Assembly: GCA_963804085.1 (NCBI GenBank) | Contig: CAWDOQ010000016.1 | Coordinates: 75,288 to 139,287 of the forward strand | Direction of reading: 5' to 3' | Length of the DNA stretch: 64,000 bases | Source: Chlamydiia bacterium | GTDB lineage: Bacteria > Chlamydiota > Chlamydiia > Chlamydiales > Rhabdochlamydiaceae | In this document: one piece after another, positions 1-18,727 of the stretch | Position numbering within the stretch: the stretch's first letter is position 1 | Layout: the number at the start of each line of letters is the position of its first letter | Notes under the pieces: model-generated | What the model was told of the DNA's origin: nothing | What the model saw: the letters and a program-made list of their open reading frames with translations, nothing else | Database searches by the model: none | Translations under genes and position numbers: made by a program

Positions 1-1879
1 CGCCTTGCACGGCAGGGCTGTTGAGCAGATAGAGGCGTACAGCATCTGCACCATACTGATTGAACATCACGTCAGGTTCCGGATAATTCTTTAGCCGCTT
101 GGACATCTTGTTGCCATCTTCGGCAAGCAGTATCCCGTTTACGACCACATTCTTGAAGGCGGGTTTATCGAAGAGCGCAACAGAGAGCACCGTAAGCGTA
201 TAGAACCAGCCACGCGTCTGATCGAGACCTTCTGCAATAAAGTCTGCCGGAAAGCCATCTTCCGTCTCTTTGCGATTTTCAAATGGATAGTGGTTTTGCG
301 CGTAAGGCATCGAGCCCGACTCAAACCAGCAGTCGAACACTTCGGGAATGCGTTTAAAAACAGTTCCATTCTCAGTAAAAGTGAGATCGTCGATGAAGTG
401 TCGGTGTAGATCGTCCAGTTTTTTCCCGATGCGATCTTCCAACTCTTTTTTCGAGGAGATGACGATACAATCGCCTCTCTCATTTCTCCAGATCGGGATC
501 GGCGTGCCCCAGTAGCGATTTCTGGAGATCGCCCAGTCGCGTGCATTTTCTAGCCACTTGCCAAAACGTCCATCTTTTATGTGCTCCGGCACCCAGTGAA
601 TCTCTGCGTTAGCGGATAAAAGCCTCTCTTTGATCTTCTCAACTGCAACAAACCAAGTTTTCACAGCTTTGTAGATGAGTGGCGTGTCCGAGCGCCAGCA
701 AAAGGGATAGCGGTGGCGGATCTGGCCGTGATGGAAAACCTTCTTTTCCGCTTTAAGACGCTTGATGATCTCCTTGTCTGCGTCTTTTACGAACATCCCC
801 TCGTAGTCGGGAACCTCGCGCGTGTATTTGCCGTTGTGATCGATTGGACAGACAACCTGAATCCCTTCGCGCGCGCAAACGTAAAAGTCGACCTCTCCAA
901 ATCCCGGAGCTGCATGTAAAACCCCCGTTCCCTCTTCGCTCGACACACACTCGTCTACGAGAATGTGGAACGCCTTTTTGTCTTTCATCGTTGCAAAATA
1001 GGAAAAGAGCGGCTCGTAGCGTTTACCCTTGAGAGACTCTCCCTTAAAACGTGCAAGAACTTCGTAGGAAGCCGGATCTGAAAAATAGGTGGCGAGACGC
1101 GAGGCTGCCAGGATGTAGATATTTCCTGTTTTAGCCTCTTTGATCTTCACATACTCCAGATCTCCACGGACGATTAGAGCCAAATTCATCGGAAGTGTCC
1201 AAGGAGTCGTCGTCCAGACAAGAAGCGTAGTGTCCGGCTCCTCTTGCAGTTGGAAGCGCACAGTTAAAGAGGGATCGTCTACATCTTTGTAGTTGAGATT
1301 CGCTTCAAAGTTAGAAAGAGGTGTGCCCAGCTGTGCAGAGAAGGGCATCACCTTAAACCCTTCGTAAACTAACCCGCGCGCATAGAGTTCGCCAAAGACC
1401 CACCAGACAGACTCCATGAAAGAGGTGTCCATCGTGTGCCAGGTGCGAGAAAAGTCGACCCAGCGCCCCATGCGATTGACTGTCCTCTCCCACTCCTGCG
1501 TGTAGCGAAGGACGATCTTGCGGCACTCCTCGTTAAACGCAGCTATTCCAAACGTCTCAATCGATGCTGCGCCCGAGAGCTCTTTTGCTTTTTCAATCTC
1601 ATTTTCTACGGGAAGACCGTGGCAGTCCCAGCCAAAACGGCGCGGCACATAAAAGCCCTGCATCGTGCGAAAACGCAAAACGACGTCCTTAATCGTGCCC
1701 GCTAAAATGTGACCGTAGTGAGGAAGCCCCGTTGCAAACGGAGGACCATCATAGAAGGAAAAGAGAGGCGAGCCTTTGCGTCCAAGAAGAGATTTTTGGA
1801 AGATCTCCTCCCGTTTCCAAAAGCTCAGAATGCGCTCTTCTCTTACAGAAAAACTCTCGTCTGTGTGTGTCTCAAACAT
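1..1879 (-). CDS. ileS: Isoleucyl-tRNA synthetase (type 2), 3' end beyond left edge of window
   Basis: Manual translation from ATG at 1879: FYDGPPFATGLPHYGH, GWDCHGLP, WTTTPWTL; KMSKR at ~95-109 is in the same frame. Missing from the ORF track because no stop falls in the window. Confidence 0.97.
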   Translation of the reverse strand, partial: MFETHTDESFSVREERILSFWKREEIFQKSLLGRKGSPLFSFYDGPPFATGLPHYGHILAGTIKDVVLRFRTMQGFYVPRRFGWDCHGLPVENEIEKAKELSGAASIETFGIAAFNEECRKIVLRYTQEWERTVNRMGRWVDFSRTWHTMDTSFMESVWWVFGELYARGLVYEGFKVMPFSAQLGTPLSNFEANLNYKDVDDPSLTVRFQLQEEPDTTLLVWTTTPWTLPMNLALIVRGDLEYVKIKEAKTGNIYILAASRLATYFSDPASYEVLARFKGESLKGKRYEPLFSYFATMKDKKAFHILVDECVSSEEGTGVLHAAPGFGEVDFYVCAREGIQVVCPIDHNGKYTREVPDYEGMFVKDADKEIIKRLKAEKKVFHHGQIRHRYPFCWRSDTPLIYKAVKTWFVAVEKIKERLLSANAEIHWVPEHIKDGRFGKWLENARDWAISRNRYWGTPIPIWRNERGDCIVISSKKELEDRIGKKLDDLHRHFIDDLTFTENGTVFKRIPEVFDCWFESGSMPYAQNHYPFENRKETEDGFPADFIAEGLDQTRGWFYTLTVLSVALFDKPAFKNVVVNGILLAEDGNKMSKRLKNYPEPDVMFNQYGADAVRLYLLNSPAVQG

Positions 1880-1914
1880 GCCTGCACATACTAACAAAAG
1901 TTAATAGATAAAAT

Positions 1915-2427
1915 CTAGCGAGCGTCGCCTAAAAAATTACGAATCCCCTCTTTGCTCTCCCATAAACAATCCGCAAGATTCTTGTAGACCCGGTCAGCCA
2001 AAGTGGGAGAAAAGAGCCCTAAAACACAAATACCTATGGAAGCTCCTGACATACCTGAAACTAGAAGCAGCTGCTTGGCTGTGAAATTGATCTTCGGATC
2101 CTTGCATAAACTCACTAAAGCCGAGAGAGCAAAAATAAGAGCTAAAATGCAATTGTGCACCAGGCAGACAAACGAGATAAACCCCGCCTCAAAATGGTGC
2201 GCACGCGAGGTTAGCAATGCCGGATCCCAGCCGCTTACCTCTCTACTTAAATAATCTTCATTTTTTTCGGAGACTCGAGACACTGTGTGTAGTGCGACAG
2301 AACCGATCATTTGATGTAAGGTTGCATTTTTAGCCTCTAGACTAGTCAGAGCTTTTTCGCCTAACTCCTCTACTTTTTTTAGTACTTGTGTAGCCGTGTC
2401 TACTACTCCTGGAACAGCCGTTGTCAT
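1915..2427 (-). CDS. Hypothetical protein with two closely spaced hydrophobic segments (Inc-like candidate)
   Basis: 170-aa ORF, GGAG RBS upstream, bilobed hydrophobic region in C-terminal half; no family recognised. Confidence 0.55.
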   Translation of the reverse strand: MTTAVPGVVDTATQVLKKVEELGEKALTSLEAKNATLHQMIGSVALHTVSRVSEKNEDYLSREVSGWDPALLTSRAHHFEAGFISFVCLVHNCILALIFALSALVSLCKDPKINFTAKQLLLVSGMSGASIGICVLGLFSPTLADRVYKNLADCLWESKEGIRNFLGDAR

Positions 2428-2529
2428 ATTTCCATCTCCTCATTGTAATTAATTAAGCTACAGAGCATTATAGGCAAAACTCTCATTTATTGAGAGAATT
2501 AAATTATTGCTTTTGTTATGTTAATTTGT

Positions 2530-2900
2530 GGGGGTGTAAAGGTTTCGACTTAGGGACAAAGTATCAGTGGCATGCGGAGGATGTCGGTTGGCCTCCTTAA
2601 TCATCCGATAAAAAAAGAATTGATACTAACGAAGAATATCAATTAGCTGCTTAAGACCTAACAGTCTTAAACGCTCGTGTAATCTAGTGCCTGACCAGGA
2701 GCGCTAGAACTACATGTCATCAACCCTGGTATGAACCTGCTCTGTCCTGCTTTTACAGAGTAGAATTCGAGACAGAAAAAGCAAGGCGGCCCGAAGTGGG
2801 GCGTCTTTCAGCACGGCCGCCTAAAACTACAAAGACGATAAGCATGTAGTCATTGATATAGAGTTTGCTAAGGACGAGAGTTCGATTCTCTCCACCTCCA
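2530..2900 (+). ncRNA. ssrA: tmRNA (SsrA); tag (A)DTNEEYQLAA* at 2622-2654
   Basis: 5' GGGGGTGTAAAGGTTTCGAC pairs with 3' CACCTCC-A giving a tRNA-Ala-like acceptor stem with G3.U wobble; T-arm GAGAG-TTCGATT-CTCTC; internal short ORF ending LAA-stop. CCA not encoded. Confidence 0.97.
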
Positions 2901-2901
2901 A
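2880..2901 (+). repeat. attL core (tmRNA 3' end)
   Basis: Identical to 13240-13261. Confidence 0.92.
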
Positions 2902-2939
2902 AATTCAGACTAAACCAAATCAAATAAGATTAAGATCAT

Positions 2940-2973
2940 AAGGGACTTACGGGAAACCGATAAGTCCCTTTTT
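2940..2973 (+). terminator. Intrinsic terminator after tmRNA, located inside the island
   Basis: AAGGGACTTA...TAAGTCCCTT stem followed by T run. Confidence 0.8.
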
Positions 2974-3003
2974 ATTTCTTTAAGCTACTTTTTTCCGGCC
3001 AAG

Positions 3004-3021
3004 TGCGTAAAATTTGCGTAA
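3004..3021 (+). promoter_or_regulatory. Putative integrase arm-type site (tandem TGCGTAA, 11-bp period)
   Basis: Same tandem pair recurs at 13162-13179 (+) and 11755-11772 (-). Confidence 0.6.
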
Positions 3022-3243
3022 TCGAAAACCCTTCGACTGGAGGGACTCATATCGCGTCCTCCTCTCTATCAATTTTTCAAAGAGGAACCATGTCCATAAA
3101 ACTGAATTTCAAACCGAAAACCCTTAAGTATGACCTAAATGCTAAGGATTACTCGCCGCTCATTCTGGGCGAGGCTACCGAACTCATCCCCGATATCGAA
3201 AAGTACCGAGAGAAATTTCCGAACAATTCAAACTGTTTTCTGT

Positions 3244-3843
3244 TTATGTGAAATTGGCATACCCTATGTAGATGGCTGTTGCAATCAATAATAAACCAGT
3301 CAAAAGATTAAATATGCGCAAACGAAACCGACTCTTTAATAACAAAGATAGTTTCTCCCCCAAAAATGCCCAAATAGCCAGTGAAATATAACAAATAAAA
3401 AAATAGATGCTAACGAATGTTAAAAAAGATCCGTAACTTTCTGGGTTAGAAAAGATTGAAACACCAGATACACATGCAATCCATGCTTTAGGATTTACCC
3501 ACTGAAGCACAAAGCCTTCATAAAATTTAGGGATATCCGTTTTTTTTACTTTTATTTCAGGATGTGAAGAAGCTATTTTATATCCCATATAAATAATATA
3601 TAAAACCCCCGCAACAGAAATGAAGGTGAGCAGAAATGGGTACGCTTCAATAAATTTTTTAAAAAAAAGTCCCACAAAAAGCAAGAGCAACGTAAAGCCT
3701 ATCGTTGCTCCTGATACATAAGGAATTGTTTTCTTTACGCCATAATCAACACCAGATGAAAGAATAATCATGTTCACGGGTCCTGGGGAAATTGACATTG
3801 CTAAAGAAAACGAAAACATTGCAAATATAAGGGAAAGGGACAT
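3244..3843 (-). CDS. LysE/RhtB family exporter
   Basis: SISPGPVN, YIIYMGYKI, GFVLQWVNPKAW motifs; six hydrophobic segments. Confidence 0.92.
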   Translation of the reverse strand: MSLSLIFAMFSFSLAMSISPGPVNMIILSSGVDYGVKKTIPYVSGATIGFTLLLLFVGLFFKKFIEAYPFLLTFISVAGVLYIIYMGYKIASSHPEIKVKKTDIPKFYEGFVLQWVNPKAWIACVSGVSIFSNPESYGSFLTFVSIYFFICYISLAIWAFLGEKLSLLLKSRFRLRIFNLLTGLLLIATAIYIGYANFT

Positions 3844-3964
3844 CAGTACTCCTACGTGTTTTCTTTTTCGACTTTGTGTAATTTGGTGATCAACTCGCTA
3901 CTAGAATCGAGGAGATCGGAAAAATGCAGGTCAGTCAAATCGAAAGCTATGATGAATGAATCAA

Positions 3965-4375
3965 TCATCTGAGCAACCCCAGCGAACCTGTATATTTATT
4001 GACGAGTTTGCGATTGCCATAAATGGCGATACCGTAATAGTTCAAGACCTCTTTTGCGCTCTTTTTCAGCTGCGCGGCATATTCCTCATAGGAAGCAGTG
4101 TTTGAAGTTGCGTCAATTAAATCTACCACTGTCAATTCTCCTTCATGAAGTTTAAGCCCCTCCCGAATTTCTTTGAGCTTGCCTGCTCCTTTTAAGACGG
4201 GCAGAGGTACAGTTGTGATCCCCTGATGCTCATGGCCCGAGCCATCCTCTAAATTGCGGCCGACTAAATCGGGGTGGAGCTTGCCAATACTCATCATTAG
4301 AACGGCGGCCGAATTCACCAACAGACCTAAGGACAGGTTCTCATCTAACACTATAACACATTTATTCTCCGACAT
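3965..4375 (-). CDS. DUF2000 family protein
   Basis: KCVIVLDENLSLGLLVNSAAVL...D.SG..H.GI...P.PVL...GIAIYG.RKLVNKYTGSLGLLR pattern. Confidence 0.85.
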   Translation of the reverse strand: MSENKCVIVLDENLSLGLLVNSAAVLMMSIGKLHPDLVGRNLEDGSGHEHQGITTVPLPVLKGAGKLKEIREGLKLHEGELTVVDLIDATSNTASYEEYAAQLKKSAKEVLNYYGIAIYGNRKLVNKYTGSLGLLR

Positions 4376-4465
4376 GCTTCCCCCTGTTTTTTCTCCACTC
4401 TACCATGTTGTAGATTAAGTGATAATATGCTATAACTTGAATTCACTGTTTTATGAGATCGATCA

Positions 4466-5338
4466 ATGTTTGATGAACTTAGGGCGATTGCCGTCTTCGC
4501 CAAAACTATTGAGACTGGCTCTTTTAGGGGATGCGCTAAAGCTTTAGGACTATCTCCTTCTGTAGTGAGCCATCACATTGCACAACTCGAGCACAAACTA
4601 GGTCTGACCCTTTTATATCGCTCCACGCGCAAAATGTCTTTAACAGCGGAAGGAGAACAGCTTTATGAAGCATCAAAAAAAATGCTAGAAGCTATCGAAT
4701 TTGGCCTCGACGCAATCTTACCAGCAGCAAAAAAGCCTTCTGGAACATTAAAAGTGACTATGCCTTCGATTCTGGTGCGCAGCGGCCTGATGCAGAAAAT
4801 TGCCCAGTTTTGTTGTGAGCTTCCGAATGTCAAACTTGATCTCAACTTTACCGATAAAACCGTTGATTTAATAGAAGAGAGGTTCGATATCGGAATTAGG
4901 ATTGGCACACTCAAAGAGAGCGGTTTAATGGCAAAAAAATTATTCTCCTTTGGCCGAAAGCTCGTCTGTTCCCCTTTGTTTTTTAAAAAACAGGCCAAGG
5001 CTAAAATACCTGAAGATCTGGGCACTTGGCGTTGGATCGGGACGAGATGCGCCCCTTTGTCGCGCCGGTTTAGAAACAGCGCAGGACAGAGTGTTGTTGT
5101 CGACTACCAACCGAATTTAATGTGCGATTCAGTGGATGCCGCCTACCAGCTTGCCGTTGCAGGGGTCGGTTTGAGTTCGCCTCCCGATTTCTTGGTTGAG
5201 AAAGATATCAAAGAAGGAAAACTCGTGGAAGTTCTTCCGGAATGGCAAATGGAGCCGTTGAATGTCTATGCAATCTGGCCCAAAAACCTCTTAAAAAACA
5301 ACCTAGCTTCCAGATTTAGATGCAGTCTTGCAAGCTAA
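4466..5338 (+). CDS. LysR family transcriptional regulator, divergent from DUF2000-lysE
   Basis: N-terminal HTH GSFRGCAKALGLSPSVVSHHIAQLE...LLYRSTRKMSLT; DLIEERFDIGIR substrate domain. Confidence 0.95.
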   Translation: MFDELRAIAVFAKTIETGSFRGCAKALGLSPSVVSHHIAQLEHKLGLTLLYRSTRKMSLTAEGEQLYEASKKMLEAIEFGLDAILPAAKKPSGTLKVTMPSILVRSGLMQKIAQFCCELPNVKLDLNFTDKTVDLIEERFDIGIRIGTLKESGLMAKKLFSFGRKLVCSPLFFKKQAKAKIPEDLGTWRWIGTRCAPLSRRFRNSAGQSVVVDYQPNLMCDSVDAAYQLAVAGVGLSSPPDFLVEKDIKEGKLVEVLPEWQMEPLNVYAIWPKNLLKNNLASRFRCSLAS

Positions 5339-5427
5339 TTCTGATCAATATGTCCTGTGTGCACCGCTTGTTATAAGAGCCGTATACCATCTTCTTCCAG
5401 GGGATTACAATGAATGGTGTTCTATGC

Positions 5428-5679
5428 TTAAGACTCTTGAAATTGAAATAATACATCTTTGCTAGTTTTGATGAGTTCCATTACCTCTTTATGCTTTGCC
5501 TTGGCTTCTTTGGTATAACCCCCATGCTTGATAACAGAGCGACGTGCCCTTTCTTTGCCTGCTTGAGATCTAGGCCCTCTAGAACGCCCACCGTGCATCC
5601 GACAGGTTGACTTCTTCCGGATAGCCCAATTTCGACATTGCCGTCTTGATCTTTTGCTGGTAGCTGTACACTGTCCCAT
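5428..5679 (-). CDS. HGGxSTG-domain small basic protein
   Basis: C-x10-C-x10-CRMHGGRSRGP...KHGGY pattern. Confidence 0.8.
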   Translation of the reverse strand: MGQCTATSKRSRRQCRNWAIRKKSTCRMHGGRSRGPRSQAGKERARRSVIKHGGYTKEAKAKHKEVMELIKTSKDVLFQFQES

Positions 5680-5691
5680 GATGCAAGGGGT

Positions 5692-6321
5692 TTAATCCAA
5701 GGATTTTTTCCCAATCCCTCCCCCAGCCGCCGAAACGTTCTGAGCAACAATTGCCTGCCCCTCATTGTAAACATGGACTACTTGCACGGTTTGTTGCCCC
5801 TTGGATCGATATTTCAACAGGGCTTGCATAGTCTGATTTGCCACGTTGAAGAGTTTGGTCGCTAAATTGATGTAGCGCTCTATATGGTAAAAACCCTCTT
5901 GAAAGTGAGCTTGGCGTAAGCAGTCCATAGCCGAGTTTTGCAAAGTCAAAAATTGTCCTGCAAGGAGTGCCTCAGTCTCATCTTGTGGCCTGAGCGTTGG
6001 AAGCAAAGAGGACATGCGTGTCAAGCGCTGTTCTTCCGTCGAGTCACACATACCACGGGATACTTGAGCAAGCAGAGCAACGGAATAGTTGAAATCACCA
6101 GTACCCGTTGTTTTTTTGAAAGCCTCAACAAACCGTCCCTTTGATTCGTGGGTCAGTCTCGTACCATCTGACAAAACTAAATCCAACTGCCCCTTGCTTG
6201 ATTTATCATCCGATCCTTTCTGAAATTTTAGGGATGGCCCTAACGGCTCTACACTCATCGGTAACTTTTGCGTAAGGTCAGCATTAACAACAGCCTTTTG
6301 CTCTTGTACATTCTCTTTCAT
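5692..6321 (-). CDS. Hypothetical protein immediately upstream of HGGxSTG gene
   Basis: 209-aa ORF; PQDETEALLAGQ and C-terminal KGQQTVQVVHV.NEGQAIV; 12-bp gap to the HGGxSTG gene. Confidence 0.7.
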   Translation of the reverse strand: MKENVQEQKAVVNADLTQKLPMSVEPLGPSLKFQKGSDDKSSKGQLDLVLSDGTRLTHESKGRFVEAFKKTTGTGDFNYSVALLAQVSRGMCDSTEEQRLTRMSSLLPTLRPQDETEALLAGQFLTLQNSAMDCLRQAHFQEGFYHIERYINLATKLFNVANQTMQALLKYRSKGQQTVQVVHVYNEGQAIVAQNVSAAGGGIGKKSLD

Positions 6322-6334
6322 ATTTTTCGCTCCC

Positions 6335-6577
6335 TCGGTAACGCTTCAAAGTTACCGCTTAACAGTTTCATAAATAATATATTACACATGTCGGTAGCTG
6401 GTAACATCAACTTACACCTGTTCTTTGCACAATGTGGCAGTAACCTTAACCCGCGCCTCCCTTTCGCTTTGCCACAGACATTCTCTGCTACCGCGCTACC
6501 GAAAAAACATAACAATCTAAAAAAACAATACATTACACCTAAAAATCAAGCGTTACTCTGGGGTAACATAGTAGCGC
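6335..6577. other. Putative element replication origin (iteron-like cluster)
   Basis: Clustered GGTAAC/GTTACC, GGTAGC/GCTACC and TTACAC hexamers in both orientations around an A-rich tract, directly downstream of the helicase gene. Confidence 0.5.
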
Positions 6578-8494
6578 TCACACTCCCAAAACCCGTTCCA
6601 CAGGAATCAAGACACACCGCTGATTGACACCGGCCATTTTCACCTGGGCACTCCCGACTGCTCCTTCGATCCTTGCTAAAGGACTTCGGATGTCCAAGAC
6701 AGCGTACTCCGTATCCTTGAGCAGATGCCTCGTCACACTCTCACATCGAAGTGCCAAAAAATCTTTCGATTTGTGCATTACGATTTTCAGTCCGTGCCGC
6801 TCTAATTCATCAACATAGCGCCCGGCTTTTTGTAGCATCTCCCCGACAGAAACCTTGTTGCCTTCGACATAAATAAGGCTCGCTAAAATCGTATCAAGGA
6901 GCTTATCACCGTCATCTTCTGATTGAAGGGTCGCCCATCTTGGAAAAATATCCTCTATTCCCTCAGGGGCCGCTATCGCTAACAGCGCAGAAGCATACAT
7001 GAAGTTTTCCACAGTACGAACCTCGATCCCCTGCTGCTCTTGTATGAATACCTGTCGATCTGCATTGATCTCTTGCGCCTTTGCCTCAATCTCAAGCCAC
7101 GCAAGAATCATTGTCACCACGATTTTGGCTGCAATAACAGCCCCTTCTCCAACACCAAATCGTTCAAGAGGAGGCGAAGCATTCGTCAGCTTTTTCAGCT
7201 CAAATTTGATCATCCTCGATTCCTGTGCTGCATCCTGCATGACCTTCTTAGGCAAATAGATCGACCCGAACCAAGGTATGTGATGCAAATGAAACCGATG
7301 TGCCTTATCAGACCCCGTGCCGCTGGTTTTTTGACCACCTCGGTTGAAGAGTTTAGCCAGCTCAAGGATGTCTGGAATATGCTTATGCTTCTCGAACTCG
7401 TCGAACACGGGAATGCGACCGCTGTTGCCGATGGTTTGGGCAGTAGCATGTGCCGTACTCTTATCCAAACGCTCAACTTGCCCGCCATAGATGCCCTGCA
7501 AAATGTCCTCGAAAAAAGTGGACTTGCCGGTTGACTTCGCCCCCGTTAGATAAATCCAAGGCCGCCAGGGCATGGCTTGTTGCATAATCGACAACATGAC
7601 AAAAGCCGTTACAAAGGCACTCATTGATGGGTCTAACCAATTCCACTGTTTTACCCTGGCATAAATAAGACTGAAAACGCTCTTTAGGTCGCTCTGCTCC
7701 ATTCGCATAGCCTCTTCAACTATTGACCAATTCAACCAAGACGCCCCTTCTGTTTCGATCAATTTACCTTCAAAGATAGGCTCTTCGAGATACTGCAACC
7801 GATTTCCTTCGACAATGGCAGCTTTCTTGCCAGAGATAATCAACCACCTCTTATTGATGTACCAAACACCCGCTTTCAAAGGCGCCTGATCGTCGATAAA
7901 TCCCTTCTTATGCGCCGTGTCGATCAGTTGGAGCTTGAGTGCCTTTTCTGCACCCTCCTCCCGAAACCATTCGGAATCGCCCCCAACGTAGAGCCGAAGT
8001 TCATCCTTGTTCAACCTCCCTGCAGGAAGCGCTATGAGACGTCCATCCTTCCAAATCAAAATCTCGCGTTGGGCATTATGGCCAAGGACATAGAAAGGTA
8101 GCTTGACCTCCGTCTCTTCAGCCATCTCAAGCAACCGCACACTATTCCGCAGCTCTATGATTTCTTCCATCAAAACACCCTGCTCTTTGTCGCGGACATC
8201 CAATTGTTCCGACCTCATTTTTACGTCAGGGTCTTCTAGAGAAAGTCCTCTTGCCTCCATCTCGCGTTCAAAGGCCGTGCGATCAACGAGCAAGGCGGTA
8301 GATTCAACGTAATGCCTCTTCTCCAAGATATCGATTTGCGTCCATACTTTGTCCGCTTGTTGACCTCTCTCATCCTTGCAAAAATAGTCATCCTGAAAAG
8401 ACGTTAAGGTAACACCAATGTGCTTCTCATTTAAAAATGCTTCAATCGTCTCTTTAGTCCTCGAGGGACAGCTCCACGCTCCTGCTGCCATCAT
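6578..8494 (-). CDS. Phage/satellite-type P-loop helicase (replication protein); true start may be ~8633 if a frameshift is corrected
   Basis: Walker A GAKSTGKST, Walker B PVFDEFE, QESR candidate arginine finger; upstream frame reads VKDDLKAAGCHW leading into AWSCP. Confidence 0.75.
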   Translation of the reverse strand: MMAAGAWSCPSRTKETIEAFLNEKHIGVTLTSFQDDYFCKDERGQQADKVWTQIDILEKRHYVESTALLVDRTAFEREMEARGLSLEDPDVKMRSEQLDVRDKEQGVLMEEIIELRNSVRLLEMAEETEVKLPFYVLGHNAQREILIWKDGRLIALPAGRLNKDELRLYVGGDSEWFREEGAEKALKLQLIDTAHKKGFIDDQAPLKAGVWYINKRWLIISGKKAAIVEGNRLQYLEEPIFEGKLIETEGASWLNWSIVEEAMRMEQSDLKSVFSLIYARVKQWNWLDPSMSAFVTAFVMLSIMQQAMPWRPWIYLTGAKSTGKSTFFEDILQGIYGGQVERLDKSTAHATAQTIGNSGRIPVFDEFEKHKHIPDILELAKLFNRGGQKTSGTGSDKAHRFHLHHIPWFGSIYLPKKVMQDAAQESRMIKFELKKLTNASPPLERFGVGEGAVIAAKIVVTMILAWLEIEAKAQEINADRQVFIQEQQGIEVRTVENFMYASALLAIAAPEGIEDIFPRWATLQSEDDGDKLLDTILASLIYVEGNKVSVGEMLQKAGRYVDELERHGLKIVMHKSKDFLALRCESVTRHLLKDTEYAVLDIRSPLARIEGAVGSAQVKMAGVNQRCVLIPVERVLGV

Positions 8495-8800
8495 GCCAAT
8501 GACAACCGGCCGCCTTTAAATCATCCTTTACCACCTTTAAAGCCTTCACTGCCCCTTTCTTAGGTTGGATCAAAAAGGCCTTTGCCGATATTGGGTCTGG
8601 TGGTGTATCCGTAGGTGTAGTATTATTGGTCATTAAAAATCTCGTTCTTGTGGTTGATAAAAGTCCCTCCCAAGTTGACGCTTGGGAGGAACAAGGCTTA
8701 AAGTCCTAAGATTTCAGCCACTTTGCGCGCTTCAGTTTCGTACTTTTCTGGGCACTGACTGAGGCGCTTTTTTTGCCATTCGTATTCGATCCAGACACTT

Positions 8801-9124
8801 TTACGAGTGCTGTGCACAACCCGATTGTATCTTGATCTTTCCTGACATTTCCTTAGCATCCTCTACCTCCTTTATGGGCATATTGGTTTTGAGTTGAGAA
8901 AGACGAGCCAAACAGGCATCCCATGCAACCTGATCGATAAGAACCCGTCTGTGATATCTGAGAATAGCGGAGGCAAAAGGACTTTGCGCCCCTTGTTGAA
9001 CGATGGCACGCACTGCGTGCTCGCTAGAAGGCCATGCCCCCGTCTCACGGTTTTTTTGGCAAAACTCGCGTACAGTGCGAACGATTTTGTTATTGGTAAT
9101 TTCTAATGTTTGAATTGTTGTCAT
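8801..9124 (-). CDS. Small DNA-binding protein, excisionase/AlpA-like
   Basis: AVRAIV...ILRYHRRVLIDQVAW winged-helix-like pattern; lies between integrase and helicase; AAGGAG RBS. Confidence 0.55.
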   Translation of the reverse strand: MTTIQTLEITNNKIVRTVREFCQKNRETGAWPSSEHAVRAIVQQGAQSPFASAILRYHRRVLIDQVAWDACLARLSQLKTNMPIKEVEDAKEMSGKIKIQSGCAQHS

Positions 9125-9426
9125 TACACGCTCCTTTATTTGATTTTTCCGCGTATGCCCTCATTTTACTTATTTTAGGCCAGCGGCAAAGGAGTCGTCT
9201 AAAAATAGACGTTTAAATAGGAGGGGATTGCATAGAGAGGAAAATTTTTATAAAAAATCCCCTCTTCTAAATTTAAACACCCCCCTCTTCGATAGAATAG
9301 CCTTTCTTGAAGCCTAGGCAACGACCGTTTTCCCAATGACGAGGATCGGTTGCTTTGGCCGCTTTAGCATAACGAGAAGACACATCACGGTACAAGTCGA
9401 ATACCACGAGCTTTAACCTCTTTATT

Positions 9427-10557
9427 CTATGCGCTGATACTATATTTCGCGATTTCGTTCTGAGAGAGGTTCTTTAGCGCTTGCAACGGAACGTTCTGTA
9501 CGGCCTGACGCCAAATTTCCTTGCCAATGGAAAAAAGCACTTTTTGATCGGCTTCTTCTTTCCACGTATGACCATGCGACTTTTTAGCGACATCGGATGA
9601 AGCTGGCTCTACACTCTCTTGCGAAGTAGATTGTGTTGTTGCTGCACCCGTCTTCGTTCTCTCTGAAAAGAAAAAGAATTGATTGATGACAATATTGACC
9701 TGTATGGGAGATTTTCCATCGTTCGGTGTATCAAACTCAAGCCTTTGCTCGAGCATATACAGAAACCGATCTATCCATTTGATCAATTCGACAATGGATA
9801 GAGGATGCTTCCTAGAGTCGGGCGATCTGAATGCGCTGAGGTAATACCCTACAGTAGCTTGGTATTGCCTCTCCTCCAATTGGAGTAGATTTTTTGGCAA
9901 ACTATCGATAGTCGGTCGAGCTGGTAGTGTAAGAGGGGTGAACGTTGGATAGAGAGATAATATTTTCAAAAATCGAAGTAGGCACGGTAGAGAAGTATCC
10001 GCCTTTTCTTTCCATTGGCGCAACTGTTGATCAGGAGGAAGTGAGTTAAGGCTCTTGTCCACATAATCGGGCCAATCAAAAACCTCCACAGAGCAACCAC
10101 GCTTTTTCTCGGTCCGCATCCAACCTTCGAATAGGAGGCAATTTTTTTCTTCTTTGGCAACTTCCGAATACAAGTGTCTGAGTTGAAAAAGAAGGCTGCC
10201 AGCATAGCCATTGGCATTAAGAGACAGGGTATGAAAGTTGAGCAGCGCGTTTACATCAGCCATTGCAAATGAGTCAGGCGCCCATTTGACGTGCGGCAAC
10301 AAAATTTTGATTTTCTCATGGAACCATGCCACGGCTTTTTCGAGATTTTCAAAAGCAATGCGATCTTCTTCTGCTAGCTCGGTTTCTGCGGAAGCTATGA
10401 TACAATCGATATGGGGCTGGCGGCGAACCTTTGCAATGAGAACCCCGAGATGGGTTAGCGCCCCTCCAATCGTTTCCGAGGTTTTGATGAGGTTGAATTC
10501 CGTAGAGATCGCATCTCGTAAACAGCGCCTATCCTTTTGCTTCGCTTCCATTGCCAC
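9427..10557 (-). CDS. Hypothetical protein, co-oriented directly downstream of integrase
   Basis: 376-aa ORF starting 2 bp after the integrase stop; no family recognised. Confidence 0.6.
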   Translation of the reverse strand: MAMEAKQKDRRCLRDAISTEFNLIKTSETIGGALTHLGVLIAKVRRQPHIDCIIASAETELAEEDRIAFENLEKAVAWFHEKIKILLPHVKWAPDSFAMADVNALLNFHTLSLNANGYAGSLLFQLRHLYSEVAKEEKNCLLFEGWMRTEKKRGCSVEVFDWPDYVDKSLNSLPPDQQLRQWKEKADTSLPCLLRFLKILSLYPTFTPLTLPARPTIDSLPKNLLQLEERQYQATVGYYLSAFRSPDSRKHPLSIVELIKWIDRFLYMLEQRLEFDTPNDGKSPIQVNIVINQFFFFSERTKTGAATTQSTSQESVEPASSDVAKKSHGHTWKEEADQKVLFSIGKEIWRQAVQNVPLQALKNLSQNEIAKYSISA

Positions 10558-10559
10558 TC

Positions 10560-11624
10560 CTAATTCAATAAATTTGCCTGTGTGCGTTCCATCACGTTTG
10601 CGATGTGCTTTTGGCTATAGTGGGCATACCGCCTAGTCATTGTCGGCGTTTTATGTCCCAGAATGGCCATTAATTCCCCTTGCGTCGCGCCACTCATTGC
10701 TAAAAAAGACGCAGCAGCATGCCTGAGGTCGTGAAACCGAAAATTTGGAATTTTTGCTCGATGAAGAGCTTTTACAAACGCATTCCGAATGTCTACCAAC
10801 CCTGATCGATTGGTTGGACTGGTCGGTTTGAAAATTAGACCAGATGCTATATCGGTCTTCTGCCAATTGACCAAAATCTTTTCTACCGTATCAGTTAAAG
10901 GGAGAATTCTTCTTTCCCCATTTTTTGTTTTTTCAAGAGTGATAGTCCGATTCTGACGATCGACGTCTTCCCACTTCAATCCAACAATTTCTCCAAATCG
11001 CATGCCTGTCAAAAGCGCCAAAGAAACAATAGGAAAAAGATGGGGATTAGGGGAAAGCTTGCATTCTTGTAAAAGACGATCTTTCTCCTCTAAACTAAGA
11101 AGACGATTCCTTCCATTCCCTTCAGATGGCTTTGAGACTTTTCTCATGGGGGTATCATCAATCCAGCCCCACTCTTTCATCGCAATAGTCAAAGCCCTGG
11201 AAAAAGCAGCTAAATATCGATTCACCGTCGCTGGGTTTCGTAATTTTTGCCTAGTAGTGACCTCCGAGAGCAAAGCATCTCTCGCTTCAGCGATAACGGC
11301 TGGAGTTAAATCCGCTAGGAGCAAATGGCCAAGCCTCTCTTTCCACCAAGCAAGATAAGCCGTTTGTCTCACTACCCTATCAGGAAACTGTGGCAACCAC
11401 TGAGAAATGAATCTATCTATTAAATCTTTAACTGTGTGCTTTTTGGCTTCGGCGATTCGAAAATGCCTACCGTCTCGAATCGACGATTCCGTGTCTTGAA
11501 TCCATTTCTTTGCTAATGTCCTGGTTCGGAAATTCTCCCTTTGAGGAGGGTAACCTTTTAGGCGGACTTCTGCATGGTAAGTGATTGTTCCGTCGTCCTT
11601 CTTGTACTCCCGAATTGTTGCCAT
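10560..11624 (-). CDS. Tyrosine recombinase/phage integrase
   Basis: Complete catalytic set: TGMRFGEI (R), KTKNG (K), FHDLRH (HxxR), LGH, RRYAH (Y); N-terminal arm-binding-like beta domain. Confidence 0.96.
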   Translation of the reverse strand: MATIREYKKDDGTITYHAEVRLKGYPPQRENFRTRTLAKKWIQDTESSIRDGRHFRIAEAKKHTVKDLIDRFISQWLPQFPDRVVRQTAYLAWWKERLGHLLLADLTPAVIAEARDALLSEVTTRQKLRNPATVNRYLAAFSRALTIAMKEWGWIDDTPMRKVSKPSEGNGRNRLLSLEEKDRLLQECKLSPNPHLFPIVSLALLTGMRFGEIVGLKWEDVDRQNRTITLEKTKNGERRILPLTDTVEKILVNWQKTDIASGLIFKPTSPTNRSGLVDIRNAFVKALHRAKIPNFRFHDLRHAAASFLAMSGATQGELMAILGHKTPTMTRRYAHYSQKHIANVMERTQANLLN

Positions 11625-11754
11625 GATCCTCCAGATGCAAATGGATCATTCTAGAAAACACTGGAATAAACAGCAACAAGAGACGAATATTCTCACAGCC
11701 TTCAAGATGCATATACCTGATATTCAATGATAAATAGATATTGCTATGTGCTGA

Positions 11755-11772
11755 TTACGCACTTATTACGCA
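11755..11772 (-). promoter_or_regulatory. Tandem TGCGTAA site upstream of integrase
   Basis: TTACGCA at 11755-11761 and 11766-11772 on the + strand. Confidence 0.5.
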
Positions 11773-11960
11773 TTACAAGAATGTTTTACCATGTCCTATC
11801 GCAAGGATTCCAGAGGGAGATGCTAAATCTCCGAAAAACGAGTTGTTAAAATTCCTATCCTTGTATACCATCGTATTTAGCTGTTTTTGAGACACTTACA
11901 ATATTTTGTGTTAAACTTTTAACGCTACGGATGTTAAAGACCGAAGGGAAGGGATGTTAA

Positions 11961-13118
11961 ATGACAAAGGCCGAATTTAAACACTATGACTTGACTTTGG
12001 TAGAGCCTACTTTTGACTCTCCTCTAACAGACCTTATTATCGATTTGAACCATCTTCGGAAAAAACGTTTAGATGGGACGACTCCTTCCCAGGTTTTTTT
12101 CAATCTCAAGAGCATTTTCCATATGCTGGAGAGTATCGGCTCGGCGCGCATCGAGGGAAATAACACTTCGCTTCTTGAGTATATAGAGACCAAGCTGGAA
12201 GAGAAGGTTGATGTGCCTATGGGAGTCAAAGAGATCCAAAACATCGAAAGTGCCATGGATTTCATTGAAAACAACGTAAAAAAGCATCCGATCAATCGAG
12301 CTTTTGTCAGCGAAATTCATAGGATGGTTGTCGAGGGATTACCCACTTCGCCAAAGGGAGAGGGGGATAAAACTCCAGGTCAATACAGGAAGTCAAATTT
12401 ACAAATCACAAAATCTAAGCATCTACCGCCAGAGTGGGTACTCGTTGATGAATATATGAATGAATTATTCGACTTCATCAATCAGGACAGCGGCGCAAAA
12501 TTCGATCTGTTAAAAACAGCGATTGCTCACCATCGATTCGTATGGATACATCCATTTGGCAATGGCAACGGACGGACAGTACGTTTATTCACTTACGCAA
12601 TGTTGATCAAGCTCGGCTTCAATGTAAACGTAGGGAGAATCATCAATCCTACGGCCGTTTTCTGTAATCACCGAAATAATTACTACAAGTATCTCGAGCA
12701 GGCTGATACTGGAGAAAAATCGGGCATTCTGGCTTGGTGTGAATACGTACTCCGTGGTCTAAAAGAGGAGATCGAAAAAATCGACAAGCTTCTCGACTAT
12801 GACTATCTGGCCAAGGAAATTTTGGTGCCCACAATCAACTATTCTCTCGAAAGAAAGTATATCACAGATGTCGAAGCAAAAATATTGAAAATGGCTGTCG
12901 AGAAAAAAATGATCCAATCGAGTGACTTAAAAGAGATCTTTCAAGGAAAACACGGCGCAGAACTATCCCGACAAATCAAGAGGCTTGTGGATAAGAAAAT
13001 GCTTCAACGCATCGGCTTCAAAGACTACGTCATCAGTTTCGGCGACAACTACCTGCTTCGGGGCATCATGAAGGTGCTGGGAGAAAAGGATTTTCTGCCT
13101 CACCTTGATGGAAAATAG
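11961..13118 (+). CDS. Fic family protein (class II-like, with inhibitory helix)
   Basis: HPFGNGNGRTVR catalytic motif; SARIEGN matches the (S/T)xxxE(G/N) inhibitory motif. Confidence 0.93.
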   Translation: MTKAEFKHYDLTLVEPTFDSPLTDLIIDLNHLRKKRLDGTTPSQVFFNLKSIFHMLESIGSARIEGNNTSLLEYIETKLEEKVDVPMGVKEIQNIESAMDFIENNVKKHPINRAFVSEIHRMVVEGLPTSPKGEGDKTPGQYRKSNLQITKSKHLPPEWVLVDEYMNELFDFINQDSGAKFDLLKTAIAHHRFVWIHPFGNGNGRTVRLFTYAMLIKLGFNVNVGRIINPTAVFCNHRNNYYKYLEQADTGEKSGILAWCEYVLRGLKEEIEKIDKLLDYDYLAKEILVPTINYSLERKYITDVEAKILKMAVEKKMIQSSDLKEIFQGKHGAELSRQIKRLVDKKMLQRIGFKDYVISFGDNYLLRGIMKVLGEKDFLPHLDGK

Positions 13119-13161
13119 AAGATTTTTCGAGAAAATTTTACTCCAGTTTCACCCTATTGAG

Positions 13162-13179
13162 TGCGTAAAAATTGCGTAA
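13162..13179 (+). promoter_or_regulatory. Putative integrase arm-type site near attR
   Basis: AGTGCGTAAAAATTGCGTAA, one mismatch to 3002-3021. Confidence 0.6.
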
Positions 13180-13239
13180 ATGAATGGCATGAAATTTCGA
13201 GTTGAGTTGTCTATGGAAAATAAATAGATACAAAAAAGC

Positions 13240-13261
13240 GTTCGATTCTCTCCACCTCCAA
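13240..13261 (+). repeat. attR core (duplicated tmRNA 3' end)
   Basis: Identical to 2880-2901. Confidence 0.92.
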
Positions 13262-13264
13262 TCG

Positions 13265-13296
13265 AAAAGGCTAGGCCCACAGGCCTAGCCTTTTTT
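13265..13296 (+). terminator. Intrinsic terminator (probably the pre-insertion tmRNA terminator)
   Basis: AAAAGGCTAGGCC-CACA-GGCCTAGCCTTTTTT immediately after attR. Confidence 0.85.
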
Positions 13297-13362
13297 ATTG
13301 GAGGCGAGCAAGCGAACAGTTTGGCTCGCGAGAAAATCGAGTTCAGCTCGATGTTTTGCCTT

Positions 13363-13432: not shown

Positions 13433-13513
13433 TTAAAGTCAAAAATCAGAATGCAAAATGAGAAGTAAGCCCGGGAAAAGATTGGCCTGTTTAACGATTA
13501 GAATAACAATTTA

Positions 13514-13795
13514 AGGCCCGAAGGGCTGCAATACCATAGCCCAGGTCGAAGCGCAGCGGAGGCCTGGGTTTCGGAAAAGTTTATCGAACCATTTTTAGGC
13601 CCGAAGGGCTGCAATACCACGAGGTCGTAGCGCAGCGGAGGCCGGGATTCGAAAACCTACTTGAGTTGGAGGACGGTATTTTTAATCGATAAGATGAAAA
13701 TGCTGTCTTAACAGGACTCCAGATGGATTATTTGTAAACGAGACTTTCGCTGTGCTTCAACCTGGGCTATGATATTATAGCTCTTTGGGCCGAAA
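13514..13795. repeat. REP-like palindrome cluster (GGCCCGAAGGGCTGCAATAC family)
   Basis: Copies at ~13515 and ~13598, inverted copy at ~13757-13792, another at ~14860-14905. Confidence 0.7.
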
Positions 13796-13982
13796 AACAG
13801 GAATCTTTTCTGCTAAACGGGGAGCTAATTTAAGAAAATTCCTAGTTTTTTCAAGTCAAAGCTTCGAATGGAAAAGGAAAAAGTAAAGCCCAGGCCATTG
13901 GAGATAAAATATTTTAATAGTTATAAAAAAACCGCCTTCAGTAAAAGACAAAGGCAGAAATTTTAATTAATCAGAGAAAATT

Positions 13983-14858: not shown

Positions 14859-14932
14859 AGGCCCGAAGGGCTGCAATAACATAGACCAGGTCGAAGCCTG
14901 GGTATTCTCGAAAACCCATCTTGAGTCCGGCA

Positions 14933-16391: not shown

Positions 16392-16457
16392 AGAGTGTAG
16401 TAGACCCGCTTTTCAGCAAAATACAAAGTGCGAATTTTTAATTAACCTGAGAAAATT

Positions 16458-18704: not shown

Positions 18705-18727
18705 AGGCCGGAAAATTCCGAGCCTTT

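Follow-up and report, generated by a model that had tools for sequence, protein, structure and literature searches.

What kind of element occupies the tmRNA gene (ssrA) of an environmental chlamydia, and how could it pass from host to host? In the window, as we call the whole stretch of 64,000 nucleotides analysed here, that gene is occupied by a 10.4-kb mobile element, which brings an integrase and replication genes of its own (Table 1). The first-pass annotation had taken it for a self-replicating island in need of a helper, either phage or conjugative element; the integrative element with its integration and replication modules was recovered, whereas the helper dependence was not, no helper being found in ten carrier genomes and a capsid gene in none of them.

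Table 1. Features of the element and its insertion site, in window positions
Feature	Position	Strand	Evidence
ssrA (tmRNA) gene	2530..2903	+	ARAGORN 2530-2900; Rfam RF00023, 148.5 bits, full length 1-374
attL core, perfect 22-nt repeat	2880..2901	+	direct-repeat search
Element-borne hairpin and T-run, putative terminator for restored tmRNA	2935..2975	+	inverted repeat
Arm-type integrase-site candidate, two TGCGTAA motifs 11 nt apart, ~120 nt inside attL	3002..3026	+	direct-repeat search
Cargo, LysE/RhtB-type amino-acid exporter	3244..3843	-	PF01810, 8.2e-20
Cargo, DUF2000 protein	3965..4375	-	PF09391, 6.6e-37
Cargo, LysR-family regulator	4466..5338	+	PF03466 and PF00126
HGGxSTG protein, 83 aa	5428..5679	-	NF041373, 36.1 bits (cut-off 29)
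p209, helical protein of large unnamed family	5692..6321	-	2607 cluster representatives at E<=1e-3; AlphaFold model pLDDT 84.9
Origin-like region, GYTAC(C) motifs in both orientations and AT-rich tract	6322..6577	-	motif density
SF3-type (D5/VapE-like) replicative helicase gene, split by +1 frameshift	6578..8633	-	phrog_35358, 9.5e-16; 67 homologues
p107, small winged-helix protein, candidate excisionase/regulator	8801..9124	-	44 homologues; predicted model
p376, variable ORF directly behind int	9427..10557	-	29 homologues
Tyrosine integrase (int), 354 aa	10560..11624	-	PF00589, 5.4e-28; phrog_1, 3.7e-67 over residues 6-347
Cargo, Fic-domain protein of SoFic anti-phage defence type	11961..13118	+	PF02661, 5.2e-18; PADLOC SoFic, 2.1e-47
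Arm-type integrase-site candidate, two TGCGTAA motifs, ~70 nt inside attR	13160..13184	+	direct-repeat search
attR core, displaced 3' end of ssrA	13240..13261	+	direct-repeat search
Native ssrA terminator hairpin and T-run, left behind at attR	13259..13300	+	inverted repeat

Insertion into the tmRNA gene

The perfect 22-bp att repeats reported earlier were confirmed: positions 2877-2901 and 13237-13261 are identical at 24 of 25 positions, and the uninterrupted 22-nt run within them coincides exactly with the 3' end of ssrA (by our own estimate, about 1e-5 such 22-mer repeats would arise by chance in 18 kb). Related islands are bounded by the same 20-nt core. The last ~22 nt of ssrA come from the element, and the gene would stay functional, since a replacement 3' end and a terminator arrive with the insertion. 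The hairpin following the restored gene is kept in a relative (G008, locus L069). In the empty sites of relatives a terminator lies directly 3' of ssrA, and in one of them (G001, L074) the gene is followed by a nearly identical hairpin, whose stem (ggctagg...cctagcc) is that found at the window's attR.

A TGCGTAA pair lies inside attL in all seven loci holding attL, and such sites lie inside attR in 6/6 loci holding attR (one with a single copy), never outside the element. The anatomy of integration can be read from the sequence, and, judging by its family, the tyrosine integrase would recombine the 22-nt core common to attP and the tmRNA gene, guided by these paired arm sites. The integrase was rightly described as intact, matching PF00589 and phrog_1 over nearly its full length. 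With a tyrosine integrase, a split and restored tmRNA 3' end and a displaced fragment marking the far end, the element is a member of the Islander/TIGER class of tDNA/tmRNA islands (PMC4383910) and does not differ from it at that level; the class is silent on replication or transfer. The excision products that the first-pass annotation had proposed as a check did not appear: neither an attP junction nor an empty attB of this strain was seen in short Logan contigs (at most 0.21 of the words were present in any one run), and three attL-to-attR joints in such contigs have sides of 20-21 nt that fall in the arm-site repeat.

Genes for integration, excision and replication

All core ORFs that had been listed on the minus strand (int, the ORFs of 376, 107 and 209 aa, the helicase and HGGxSTG) were found at their annotated coordinates. 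p376 gave no match in Pfam, PHROG, PADLOC or ESM Atlas, and its place is taken in four related loci (L009, L011, L012, L030) by ORFs of 369-425 aa in which no similarity to it could be detected. The 44 homologues of p107 all lie inside this element family. Its earlier label "Xis/AlpA-like" finds no support in sequence, as p107 shows no similarity to any HTH or excisionase family and none of 20 family members matches HTH families. The predicted model, with a beta-alpha-alpha-beta-beta-alpha topology, is a winged helix, and seven chains reach Z>=5, five of them from excisionases, an RDF or a phage P2 DNA-binding protein, at Z values of only 5.0-5.8. p107 may therefore, on fold similarity, act as excisionase or regulator.

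The SF3-type helicase of the core is present, but its gene is interrupted in this copy by a +1 frameshift at ~8494 relative to homologues of 684 aa, so that 8454-8633 holds the N-terminal 46 codons and 6578-8494 the remaining 638 aa. This copy may be impaired, unless the extra base reflects an error of assembly; that base is absent from contigs of two other runs. The helicase matches PHROG DNA primase/helicase families, and some of its 67 homologues are fused to Toprim or RepB-primase domains. In the chlamydial protein we recognised no primase or origin-binding domain, residues 1-178 are without assignment, and a profile search of the PDB returned a P-loop match only.

The "iteron cluster" of the first-pass annotation was not upheld, as there is no tandem array and TRF found nothing; instead, six GTWAC motifs occur in 256 nt, against 0.2 expected, forming the densest such window in the 64 kb. 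The enrichment recurs in 10 of 10 related loci. In an alignment of nine elements the invariant columns coincide with the motifs, which keep their position between elements sharing only 61-64% helicase identity. A 71-aa ORF in this region is not conserved as a frame, its matches being split between frames in relatives. Replication of the excised circle would start at this GYTAC-motif/AT-rich origin, which lies just downstream of the SF3 gene, and the helicase is its putative initiator. Distant helicase homologues are encoded on four circular-looking contigs of 6.7-11.8 kb together with integrase, ParA, toxin-antitoxin and TerS-like HTH genes; no TerL or capsid gene was found on these four.

A family with recent movement between hosts

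Helicase relatives are encoded at 11 genome loci and 39 metagenome loci, and the helicase family is present in 9/400 genomes of the order, spread over at least five GTDB families. At nine of the 11 genome loci int, p107 and helicase follow in the same order (int being cut by a contig end in one), eight of the 11 have matches to p209 and HGGxSTG, and L005, L008, L009 and L030 each have another att core, at a distance of 10.0-12.8 kb from ssrA. The recurrence of core and gene order at ssrA in other chlamydial genomes, within the same repeat bounds, bears out what the first-pass annotation had predicted, and its suggestion of an undescribed family in Chlamydiae agrees with our literature search, which retrieved no description of HGGxSTG or of this chlamydial family; in the main text of the SatelliteFinder paper (PMC10085698) the string "chlamydi" occurs 0 times. 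An integrative, self-replicating element family is well supported, and the island is probably a member of an undescribed family of such 10-13-kb elements of environmental chlamydiae with the ssrA 3' end as attB.

Judged from sequence identities, the element has moved between chlamydial families in recent times: its integrase is 82-93% identical to those of relatives whose neighbouring IleRS is only 68-74% identical (93.2% vs 73.3% in L008, 92.4% vs 74.1% in L009, 90.1% vs 73.6% in L011, 91.5% vs 72.2% in L012 and 82.2% vs 67.8% in L030). Cargo lies at both ends of the island. Next to int, the SoFic gene of the window has its counterparts in PDC-S02 (L009), AbiEi/Eii (L011) and HEC-09 (L030), and PDC-S02 occurs at the same end of L007, a locus showing no int. 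Two slots would hold the cargo, with anti-phage defence adjoining int and transport or surface genes at the opposite end.

The p209-HGGxSTG cassette and possible vehicles

The HGGxSTG family has invariant C4, C15, C26 and H29 in its alignment. The protein is homologous to the N-terminal domain of the annotated phage small terminase phiT1 gp63 (hhalign 97.5%, E 8.8e-12, 55 columns), this TerS gene lying directly upstream of TerL and portal, and further matches of its domain are PHROG TerS families and gene 1 of phage Flasso, next to the annotated pac site. The p209 gene is always located immediately upstream; a fold search returned for p209 generic helical hairpins only, and p209 had no convincing PHROG match and matched no phage record. 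The cassette may bind DNA via a Zn-ribbon-like domain common to the N-terminus of some phage small terminases and, in the weakest step of the proposed mechanism, could act as a transfer or packaging-recognition module. The pair was present in 3/3 plasmids inspected and 3/4 IMG/VR contigs, and was also seen on other integrase/primase elements and a prophage-like contig; in contig L087 it accompanies TerL and a head-tail adaptor. As the pair is also found on alphaproteobacterial plasmids without phage context, its presence need not imply a role in packaging. In Methylobacterium pC, Microvirga unnamed3 and Pseudosulfitobacter pSMR1-1 the same two genes occur in the same order, ~200-280 aa and then ~88 aa, differing from ours in belonging to a plasmid replicon and not to an integrated island, with identities of 33-41% (p209) and ~33% (HGGxSTG) and an unannotated function there too.

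P4-like satellites combine an integrase with a hotspot for defence genes and a large replication protein of the SF3-helicase type, whose gene adjoins the ori, all of which are mirrored here. In contrast to P4, there is no P4-alpha-type primase/D5_N match (Pfam), int is not adjacent to attL, and no analogue of Psu, Sid or Delta was recognised in a comparison with the P4 core genes by description. PICIs (PMC10085698) resemble the element in size class, in the order of int, accessory slot, small DNA-binding protein, replication protein with ori and small packaging-type protein, in lacking virion and lysis genes, and in accessory and defence genes at the ends. Unlike the PICIs described there, the chlamydial element lacks a primase domain, a capsid-morphogenesis gene and, by sequence, AlpA, and its "TerS" is an N-terminal-domain homologue only; moreover, it has no known helper and comes from a new host phylum. 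It would at best be a three-component "Type C" match of SatelliteFinder, a class that PMC10085698 itself treats as ambiguous. VEIMEs of marine bacteria, as described in PMC9618062, are likewise small and integrative, with primase/helicase, AlpA or excisionase, sometimes TerS homologues, Abi-like or defence genes and unknown helpers, but are defined by recovery from virus particles, whereas the chlamydial family is known from genome and metagenome sequences and has no helicase relatives in IMG/VR. The claimed parallel to PICI/P4-like satellites holds for gene order and function classes only, and membership of either is not supported.

We rank helper-phage particles first among the vehicles, then uptake of released DNA, then conjugative mobilisation. 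As a true phage satellite, a plausible but unproven and at present tentative reading, the element would be induced by a tailed helper to excise and replicate, HGGxSTG with p209 would redirect the helper terminase to a pac/cos site of the element, and its ~10-13-kb genome would be packaged in helper capsids. Besides the PICI-like order, the terminase homologies, the pair in L087, the TerS-like genes of the distant circular relatives and the defence cargo point this way, as do HK97-type capsid genes in 6/401 genomes of the order and a report of chlamydial plasmids with genes for phage terminase and tail proteins (PMC7846284). Against it, the element's own genome (91% complete) has no capsid, TerL or portal gene, the HK97 capsid is absent from all nine other carriers, and none of the six capsid-bearing genomes carries the element. 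No helicase relative was found among 2.9 million IMG/VR contigs with single-protein or profile queries, and the plasmid-borne pairs, the lack of phage matches to p209 and the absence of a capsid-remodelling gene and, by sequence, of AlpA also speak against a satellite. To our knowledge, all chlamydial phages characterised so far belong to the Microviridae, whose capsids could not take up 10 kb.

A more doubtful reading is a helper-independent integrative plasmid, which would excise and replicate as a small circle, freed by lysis of bacteria or of the eukaryotic host cell, taken up by co-resident chlamydiae, for example via DNA-uptake machinery, and integrating itself, with p209 and HGGxSTG serving maintenance or regulation. 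For Chlamydia it is established that co-infecting bacteria exchange DNA through uptake and recombination. The complete integration and replication modules, the maintenance genes (ParA, toxin-antitoxin) of the distant circular relatives, the occurrence of the pair on plasmids and the search of carriers, in which no helper of any type turned up, fit this reading; yet the close chlamydial members were met only in integrated form or on linear contigs, none being circular, their core has no partition gene, and the TerS-domain homology is left without explanation.

Mobilisation through an unrecognised oriT by a T4SS, F-type or other, encoded on chlamydial conjugative plasmids or islands, is unlikely. 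Simkaniaceae and Parachlamydiaceae are known to have plasmids with T4SS genes (PMC7846284), and TrwC relaxase remnants occur in the own genome and in the closest carrier relative, but these are pseudogenes with in-frame stops, TrwC being present in only 1/9 other carriers, and neither a T4CP (PF02534) nor a MOB relaxase of PF03432 is present in the own genome. The island itself has no relaxase, coupling protein or T4SS gene; none of its 14 ORFs matched capsid, tail, portal, TerL, relaxase or T4SS families (Pfam, NCBIfam, PHROGs), in agreement with the first-pass annotation, which had seen no capsid, tail, relaxase or T4SS genes.

A deleted prophage does not fit the family, none of whose examined members carries virion genes, and it is most improbable that the element is a decayed remnant of a full prophage or larger island with its mobility lost, as the frameshifted helicase and degenerate extra att copies near ssrA in some relatives might suggest, given the same size (10.0-12.8 kb) and core order in independent genomes, intact integrases nearly identical across divergent hosts, and conserved arm sites and origin motifs.

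An island at the ssrA gene and its chlamydial relatives

The element lying at the 3' end of ssrA has the anatomy of a textbook tDNA island and, judged from its sequence, is a member of the tmRNA-integrating island class. A full-length tmRNA gene was called by ARAGORN and Rfam, and its last 25 nt recur at the far end of the island with one mismatch, including the two perfect 22-nt copies that the first-pass annotation had taken for att repeats. According to the Islander abstract (PMC4383910), islands of this kind split their target gene, regenerate it from island sequence, leave the displaced 3' fragment at the far end and encode a tyrosine integrase. Both the split target and the integrase were found here, the latter (354 aa) matching PF00589 (5.4e-28) and aligning end to end with phrog_1 (3.7e-67), in keeping with its earlier description as intact; the ORF call likewise reproduced the list of genes proposed at that stage. 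A hairpin with a T-run follows immediately after the downstream repeat copy, and the element has its own just inside attL. In element-free relatives, a terminator of the same type stands directly after the tmRNA 3' end, and the stem at the empty site of one of them, G001 (ggctagg...cctagcc), is the same as that at attR of the window.

Coordinates of the island and of other features in the window
Feature	Coordinates	Strand	Remark
tmRNA gene (ssrA)	2530-2903	+	full length
Upstream 25-nt repeat copy	2877-2901		last 25 nt of the tmRNA gene
attL core	2880-2901		perfect 22-nt run
Hairpin and T-run inside attL	2935-2975		
HGGxSTG	5428-5679	-	83 aa
p209	5692-6321	-	
p71	6318-6533		71-aa ORF, rejected as a gene
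Helicase	6578-8633	-	frame broken
Helicase, first 46 codons	8454-8633		separate ORF
p107	8801-9124	-	
p376	9427-10557	-	
int	10560-11624	-	354 aa
SoFic	11961-13118	+	Fic-domain cargo
Downstream 25-nt repeat copy	13237-13261		one mismatch
attR core	13240-13261		perfect 22-nt run
Hairpin and T-run after attR	13259-13300		
GC-rich repeat (about 40 nt)	13513-13552; 13596-13635; 14858-14897		three copies
Direct repeats	13937-14848; 16412-17338		
Legionella_OMP-like gene	15319-15747; 15795-16391		split into two ORFs
294-aa ORF	16458-17342		
DUF1016_N-only ORF and adjoining ATPase	18186-19987		
Ligand-gated channel homologue	34454-35476	+	PF02931
Ribonucleotide reductase, large subunit	50862-54995	+	1377 aa

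Within the island, paired TGCGTAA motifs spaced 11 nt apart occur some 120 nt from attL and some 70 nt from attR. Among the ends of related islands that could be examined, pairs occur at equal positions at 7 of 7 attL and 6 of 6 attR ends (one attR with a single copy), and none was found outside the element in the related loci examined. The 7-mer occurs only 18 times on both strands of the 64-kb window, and the pairs are candidates that fit arm-type integrase sites. Parts of the window are present, as Logan contigs, in 20 public runs from 16 studies (best share 0.21), and the four runs compared with the window yielded only short contigs of relatives. Three joints of 3021/3022 to 13238-13240 have sides of only 20-21 nt within the repeated arm site and were treated as artefacts; neither an attP junction nor an empty attB was recovered from these runs. 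Three other genomes have additional, partly degenerate tmRNA 3' ends 1-1.4 kb past attR or ssrA (loci L008, L068 and L014, at original coordinates 3810, 3166 and 3851), so that ssrA appears to have been struck repeatedly, with the scars kept.

A scan of one genome per species recovered 11 loci with relatives of the helicase. One is in a MAG that bears the label Verrucomicrobiae; the titles of the MAGs with the other ten read Simkaniaceae, Parachlamydiales, Parachlamydiaceae, Rhabdochlamydiaceae, Chlamydiae or unclassified bacterium. The genes int, p107 and helicase follow the order of the window at nine of the 11 (with int cut by the contig end at one), p209 and HGGxSTG are present at eight, and ssrA and IleRS adjoin the element at five; a second att core was located 10.0-12.8 kb from ssrA at L005, L008, L009 and the metagenome locus L030. 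A search for the core at ssrA in other chlamydial MAGs had been proposed as a check, and these same-order cores with adjoining ssrA, together with the bounded copies, are what it returned. The helicase family occurs in 9 of 400 sampled genomes of the order, the element's own genome included, and extends over at least five GTDB families, while L015, a distant member, uses tRNA-Thr as its target and has an integrase only 40% identical. In the loci compared, int is 82-93% identical against 68-74% for the adjoining IleRS, which argues that the integration module crossed hosts long after the hosts had diverged, and the wider range of helicase identity (61-98%) suggests modular exchange.

To our knowledge, few mobile elements are known from chlamydiae, namely plasmids, a tra island, the tet island of C. 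suis and microviruses. The family described here is real and, as the first-pass annotation had suspected, apparently undescribed: our literature searches returned no prior description, and the string "chlamydi" has no occurrence in the main text of PMC10085698 (SatelliteFinder). The clear signs of recent movement between chlamydial families show gene flow, including that of anti-phage defence genes, among obligate intracellular bacteria by an undescribed route. The family combines an intact integrase and a compact candidate origin with a defined attB of 22 nt, placed in a gene that is universally present, and its int/attP pair could serve for site-specific integration in amoeba-associated chlamydiae, in which genetic manipulation is hard. 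Integration and replication functions are well supported by the genes and sites found; excision, replication and, above all, the route of transfer we infer.

Replication region and accessory genes

The earlier identification of a helicase stands for its SF3 helicase part, and its reading frame proved to be broken. Homologues 99% identical comprise 684 aa; here, a 638-aa frame begins at the junction, and the first 46 codons fall in a separate ORF. Contigs of relatives in two public runs have one base fewer at 8494; the frameshift is an assembly error or else a genuine mutation that inactivates the gene. The Walker A site reads GAKSTGKST, and the protein matches a PHROG family named "DNA primase" and one unnamed PHROG family. 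A PDB profile search returned chance-level matches only, and the 638-aa ORF has no Pfam match at E<=0.01, P4-alpha-type Prim-Pol/D5_N included, so that the P4 marker was not found. Across 24 members of the helicase family there are weak Pfam matches to AAA/SF3/D5/VapE-type ATPases, with a RepB-primase domain in three and Toprim domains in one; in the chlamydial helicases, Pfam revealed no recognisable primase domain, residues 1-178 having no family assignment.

Where an iteron cluster had been proposed, TRF detected no tandem iterons. From the stop of the helicase gene to the start of p209 there are 256 nt, which contain six GTWAC motifs against 0.2 expected, making this the densest such window in the 64 kb; related loci show the same enrichment (10 of 10). 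When nine elements are aligned, the invariant columns coincide with eight or nine GYTAC(C)/GGTARC motifs, whose positions about an AT-rich tract are fixed, and we read this region as the putative origin. The ORF p71 was rejected as a gene, its matches in relatives changing frame and the alignment having 1-nt gaps.

Distant homologues of the helicase (35-42% identity) are encoded on four metagenome contigs of 6.7-11.8 kb (L037, L038, L039 and L062), whose ends overlap by 123-127 nt; these contigs are therefore probably circular, which suggests that relatives exist as small episomes. Their other genes include those for integrases, ParA, toxin-antitoxin systems (ParE/RelE toxins), a DnaG-type primase and TerS-like HTH proteins, and no capsid, TerL or relaxase genes were found on them.

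For p107, 44 homologues were found, all within this element family. It had been labelled Xis/AlpA-like, a label that the sequence does not bear out and that the predicted fold weakly favours: none of 20 family members matched Pfam HTH, AlpA or excisionase families at E<=1, and a PDB profile search gave chance-level matches only. In the AlphaFold model (pLDDT 72 for the whole chain and 77-93 for residues 11-80), the topology is beta-alpha-alpha-beta-beta-alpha, as in a winged helix. Foldseek against the PDB returned nothing at E<=1e-3, and among 48,161 PDB representatives only seven reached Z>=5 (range 5.0-5.8), namely a phage P2 DNA-binding protein, chain B of 6hn7 (a PDB entry on PICIs redirecting helper packaging), a putative excisionase, RdfS, BldC, Tn916 Xis and the GIsul2 excisionase, with Pukovnik Xis next at Z 4.8. 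Given the low Z and the lack of significant Foldseek matches, "Xis-like" is a reasonable but weak assignment. The neighbouring p376 had no usable match in the ESM Atlas.

Several members carry candidate anti-phage defence genes in the slot that separates int from attR: SoFic in the window (2.1e-47), with the same Fic gene in L005, L011 and L014, PDC-S02 nucleases in L009 and L007, AbiEi/AbiEii in L011 and HEC-09 in L030. The opposite slot carries transporters (LysE/DUF2000/LysR in the window, MFS in L009), inverse-autotransporter-like proteins and other genes. In four metagenome runs, contig depth, which is a rough guide, over the Fic gene (11916-13217) exceeds that of the element core several-fold (in one run, 112-115 against 10-25), and the Fic gene thus seems to circulate in other contexts too.

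The p209-HGGxSTG cassette and the route of transfer

The HGGxSTG protein scores above the NCBIfam domain cut-off, and its invariant C4, C15, C26 and H29 suggest a zinc knuckle. Four phage records match it: the protein annotated as small terminase in phage phiT1, whose gene immediately precedes those for TerL and portal, gene 1 of phage Flasso, adjoining an annotated pac site, gene 1 of phage Mimi, and HTVC028P gp01. With hhalign, residues 3-58 align with residues 24-80 of the 188-aa phiT1 TerS (97.5% probability, E 8.8e-12, 55 columns), and by this alignment HGGxSTG is a stand-alone homologue of the N-terminal domain of TerS, without the rest of that protein; the remainder of TerS is unrelated to p209.

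The p209 family comprises 2607 clusters at E<=1e-3 with no family name, those in the ESM Atlas being likewise unnamed. Its model is confidently mostly helical; Foldseek searches of the PDB and BFVD had no match at E<=1e-3, the VIA-align matches were all long helical hairpins with Z<=9.9, which falls short of what counts as meaningful among helical proteins, a profile search of the PDB produced chance-level matches only, and a PHROG search gave no informative family match. The two genes are adjacent and in the same order on 3 of 3 alphaproteobacterial plasmids inspected and on 3 of 4 IMG/VR contigs matched by a profile from a 12-sequence p209 alignment. On the IMG/VR contig L085, the stretch 1258-8596 runs from int through further genes to an 809-aa primase-helicase, a p209-like gene and HGGxSTG, and its replication protein is unrelated to that of the window, which indicates that the cassette moves with different replication modules; L087 has the pair together with TerL, a head-tail adaptor and an integrase, and L088 with an Erf recombinase. 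This occurrence on plasmids and on varied IMG/VR contigs argues for a general module of mobile elements, and a widespread one in view of its protein clusters. Gene adjacency is the basis for regarding p209 and HGGxSTG as a functional pair, for which DNA recognition in packaging or transfer is our preferred guess.

In its predicted workings the element resembles the replicative capsid-less integrative elements, of which PICIs, P4-like satellites and marine VEIMEs are the studied examples (PMC10085698 and PMC9618062). With the PICI model of SatelliteFinder it shares the integrase. As to AlpA, p107 offers the fold described above and no sequence match; as to pri-rep, an SF3 helicase is supported and a primase was not found here, Toprim or RepB-primase being fused in some homologues; as to the small terminase, the 83-aa HGGxSTG is homologous to the N-terminal domain only. 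No capsid-morphogenesis or packaging-redirection gene was recognised among the 14 island ORFs by Pfam, NCBIfam and PHROGs families. P4-like satellites carry the hijacking genes Psu, Sid, Delta and Epsilon, and none of these names appears among the island ORFs in the general Pfam/PHROGs annotation. Most PICI markers (AlpA by sequence, primase, full TerS, capsid morphogenesis) are thus missing or in doubt, and the element would be at most a three-component "Type C" cluster in SatelliteFinder terms, a type called ambiguous by its authors (PMC10085698).

The search for a helper covered the carrier genomes, the order and IMG/VR. The element's own genome (91% complete) has no TerL (PF03354), HK97 capsid, portal, T4 coupling protein or relaxase PF03432, and the query for a microvirus capsid gave no hit there, nor in its positive control; a TrwC (MOBF) relaxase lies at G000:C23:128806-129620 in three pieces with in-frame TGA stops. 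Among nine other carrier genomes, TrwC was found in one, the closest carrier relative (G041), also with a stop, and an HK97 capsid in none. Of 401 genomes of the order, 6 have an HK97-type capsid gene, and none of these 6 has the helicase family. IMG/VR returned no relatives of the helicase with either single-protein or profile queries. According to Köstlbacher et al. (PMC7846284), some chlamydial plasmids carry genes for phage terminase and tail, or for a T4SS, so both kinds of helper exist in the phylum, none of them linked to this element.

A phage satellite is an attractive reading because of the TerS-domain homology of HGGxSTG, the anti-phage defence cargo and the TerS-bearing episomal relatives, and we hold it tentatively, as possible and rather unlikely. 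Spelled out in full, it would give the phylum Chlamydiae its first phage-satellite family, a replicon that integrates at ssrA and hijacks an undiscovered tailed or large-capsid phage via HGGxSTG, as a stand-alone TerS N-terminal DNA-recognition domain, and its helical partner p209, a packaging-redirection module also present on plasmids and integrative elements of other phyla; this complete proposal we consider doubtful. If true, p209 and HGGxSTG would constitute a general, so far unrecognised packaging-redirection module. The defence cargo and the terminase-like domain imply phages of environmental chlamydiae yet to be discovered. A relaxase-less IME with nothing but an oriT is a further, less likely possibility. 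The element is not an ICE, nor is it a prophage: among its 14 ORFs, none matches capsid, portal, tail, TerL, lysis, relaxase, coupling protein or T4SS families in Pfam, NCBIfam and PHROGs, in line with the absence of capsid, tail, relaxase and T4SS genes noted at first pass, and no capsid, portal, TerL, tail or lysis genes were found in the cargo of 10 related islands.

Other features of the window

Past attR, two direct repeats about 2.47 kb apart are 88-93% identical; the 294-aa ORF in this region has a truncated paralogue of 103 aa, and a Legionella_OMP-like gene between the repeats is split into two ORFs. The GC-rich repeat just outside attR may be REP- or MITE-like. The DUF1016_N-only ORF represents the N-terminal half of a YhcG/PDC-S02-type nuclease and adjoins an AAA_14/DUF4143 ATPase; the same nuclease family is also cargo in islands L009 and L007, and this region could be what is left of an older island on the downstream side of attR. 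In the large subunit of ribonucleotide reductase, residues 723-783 match LAGLIDADG_3, a domain suggestive of an intein, and a neurotransmitter-gated ion-channel ligand-binding domain (PF02931, 2e-26) marks a homologue of bacterial pentameric ligand-gated channels.
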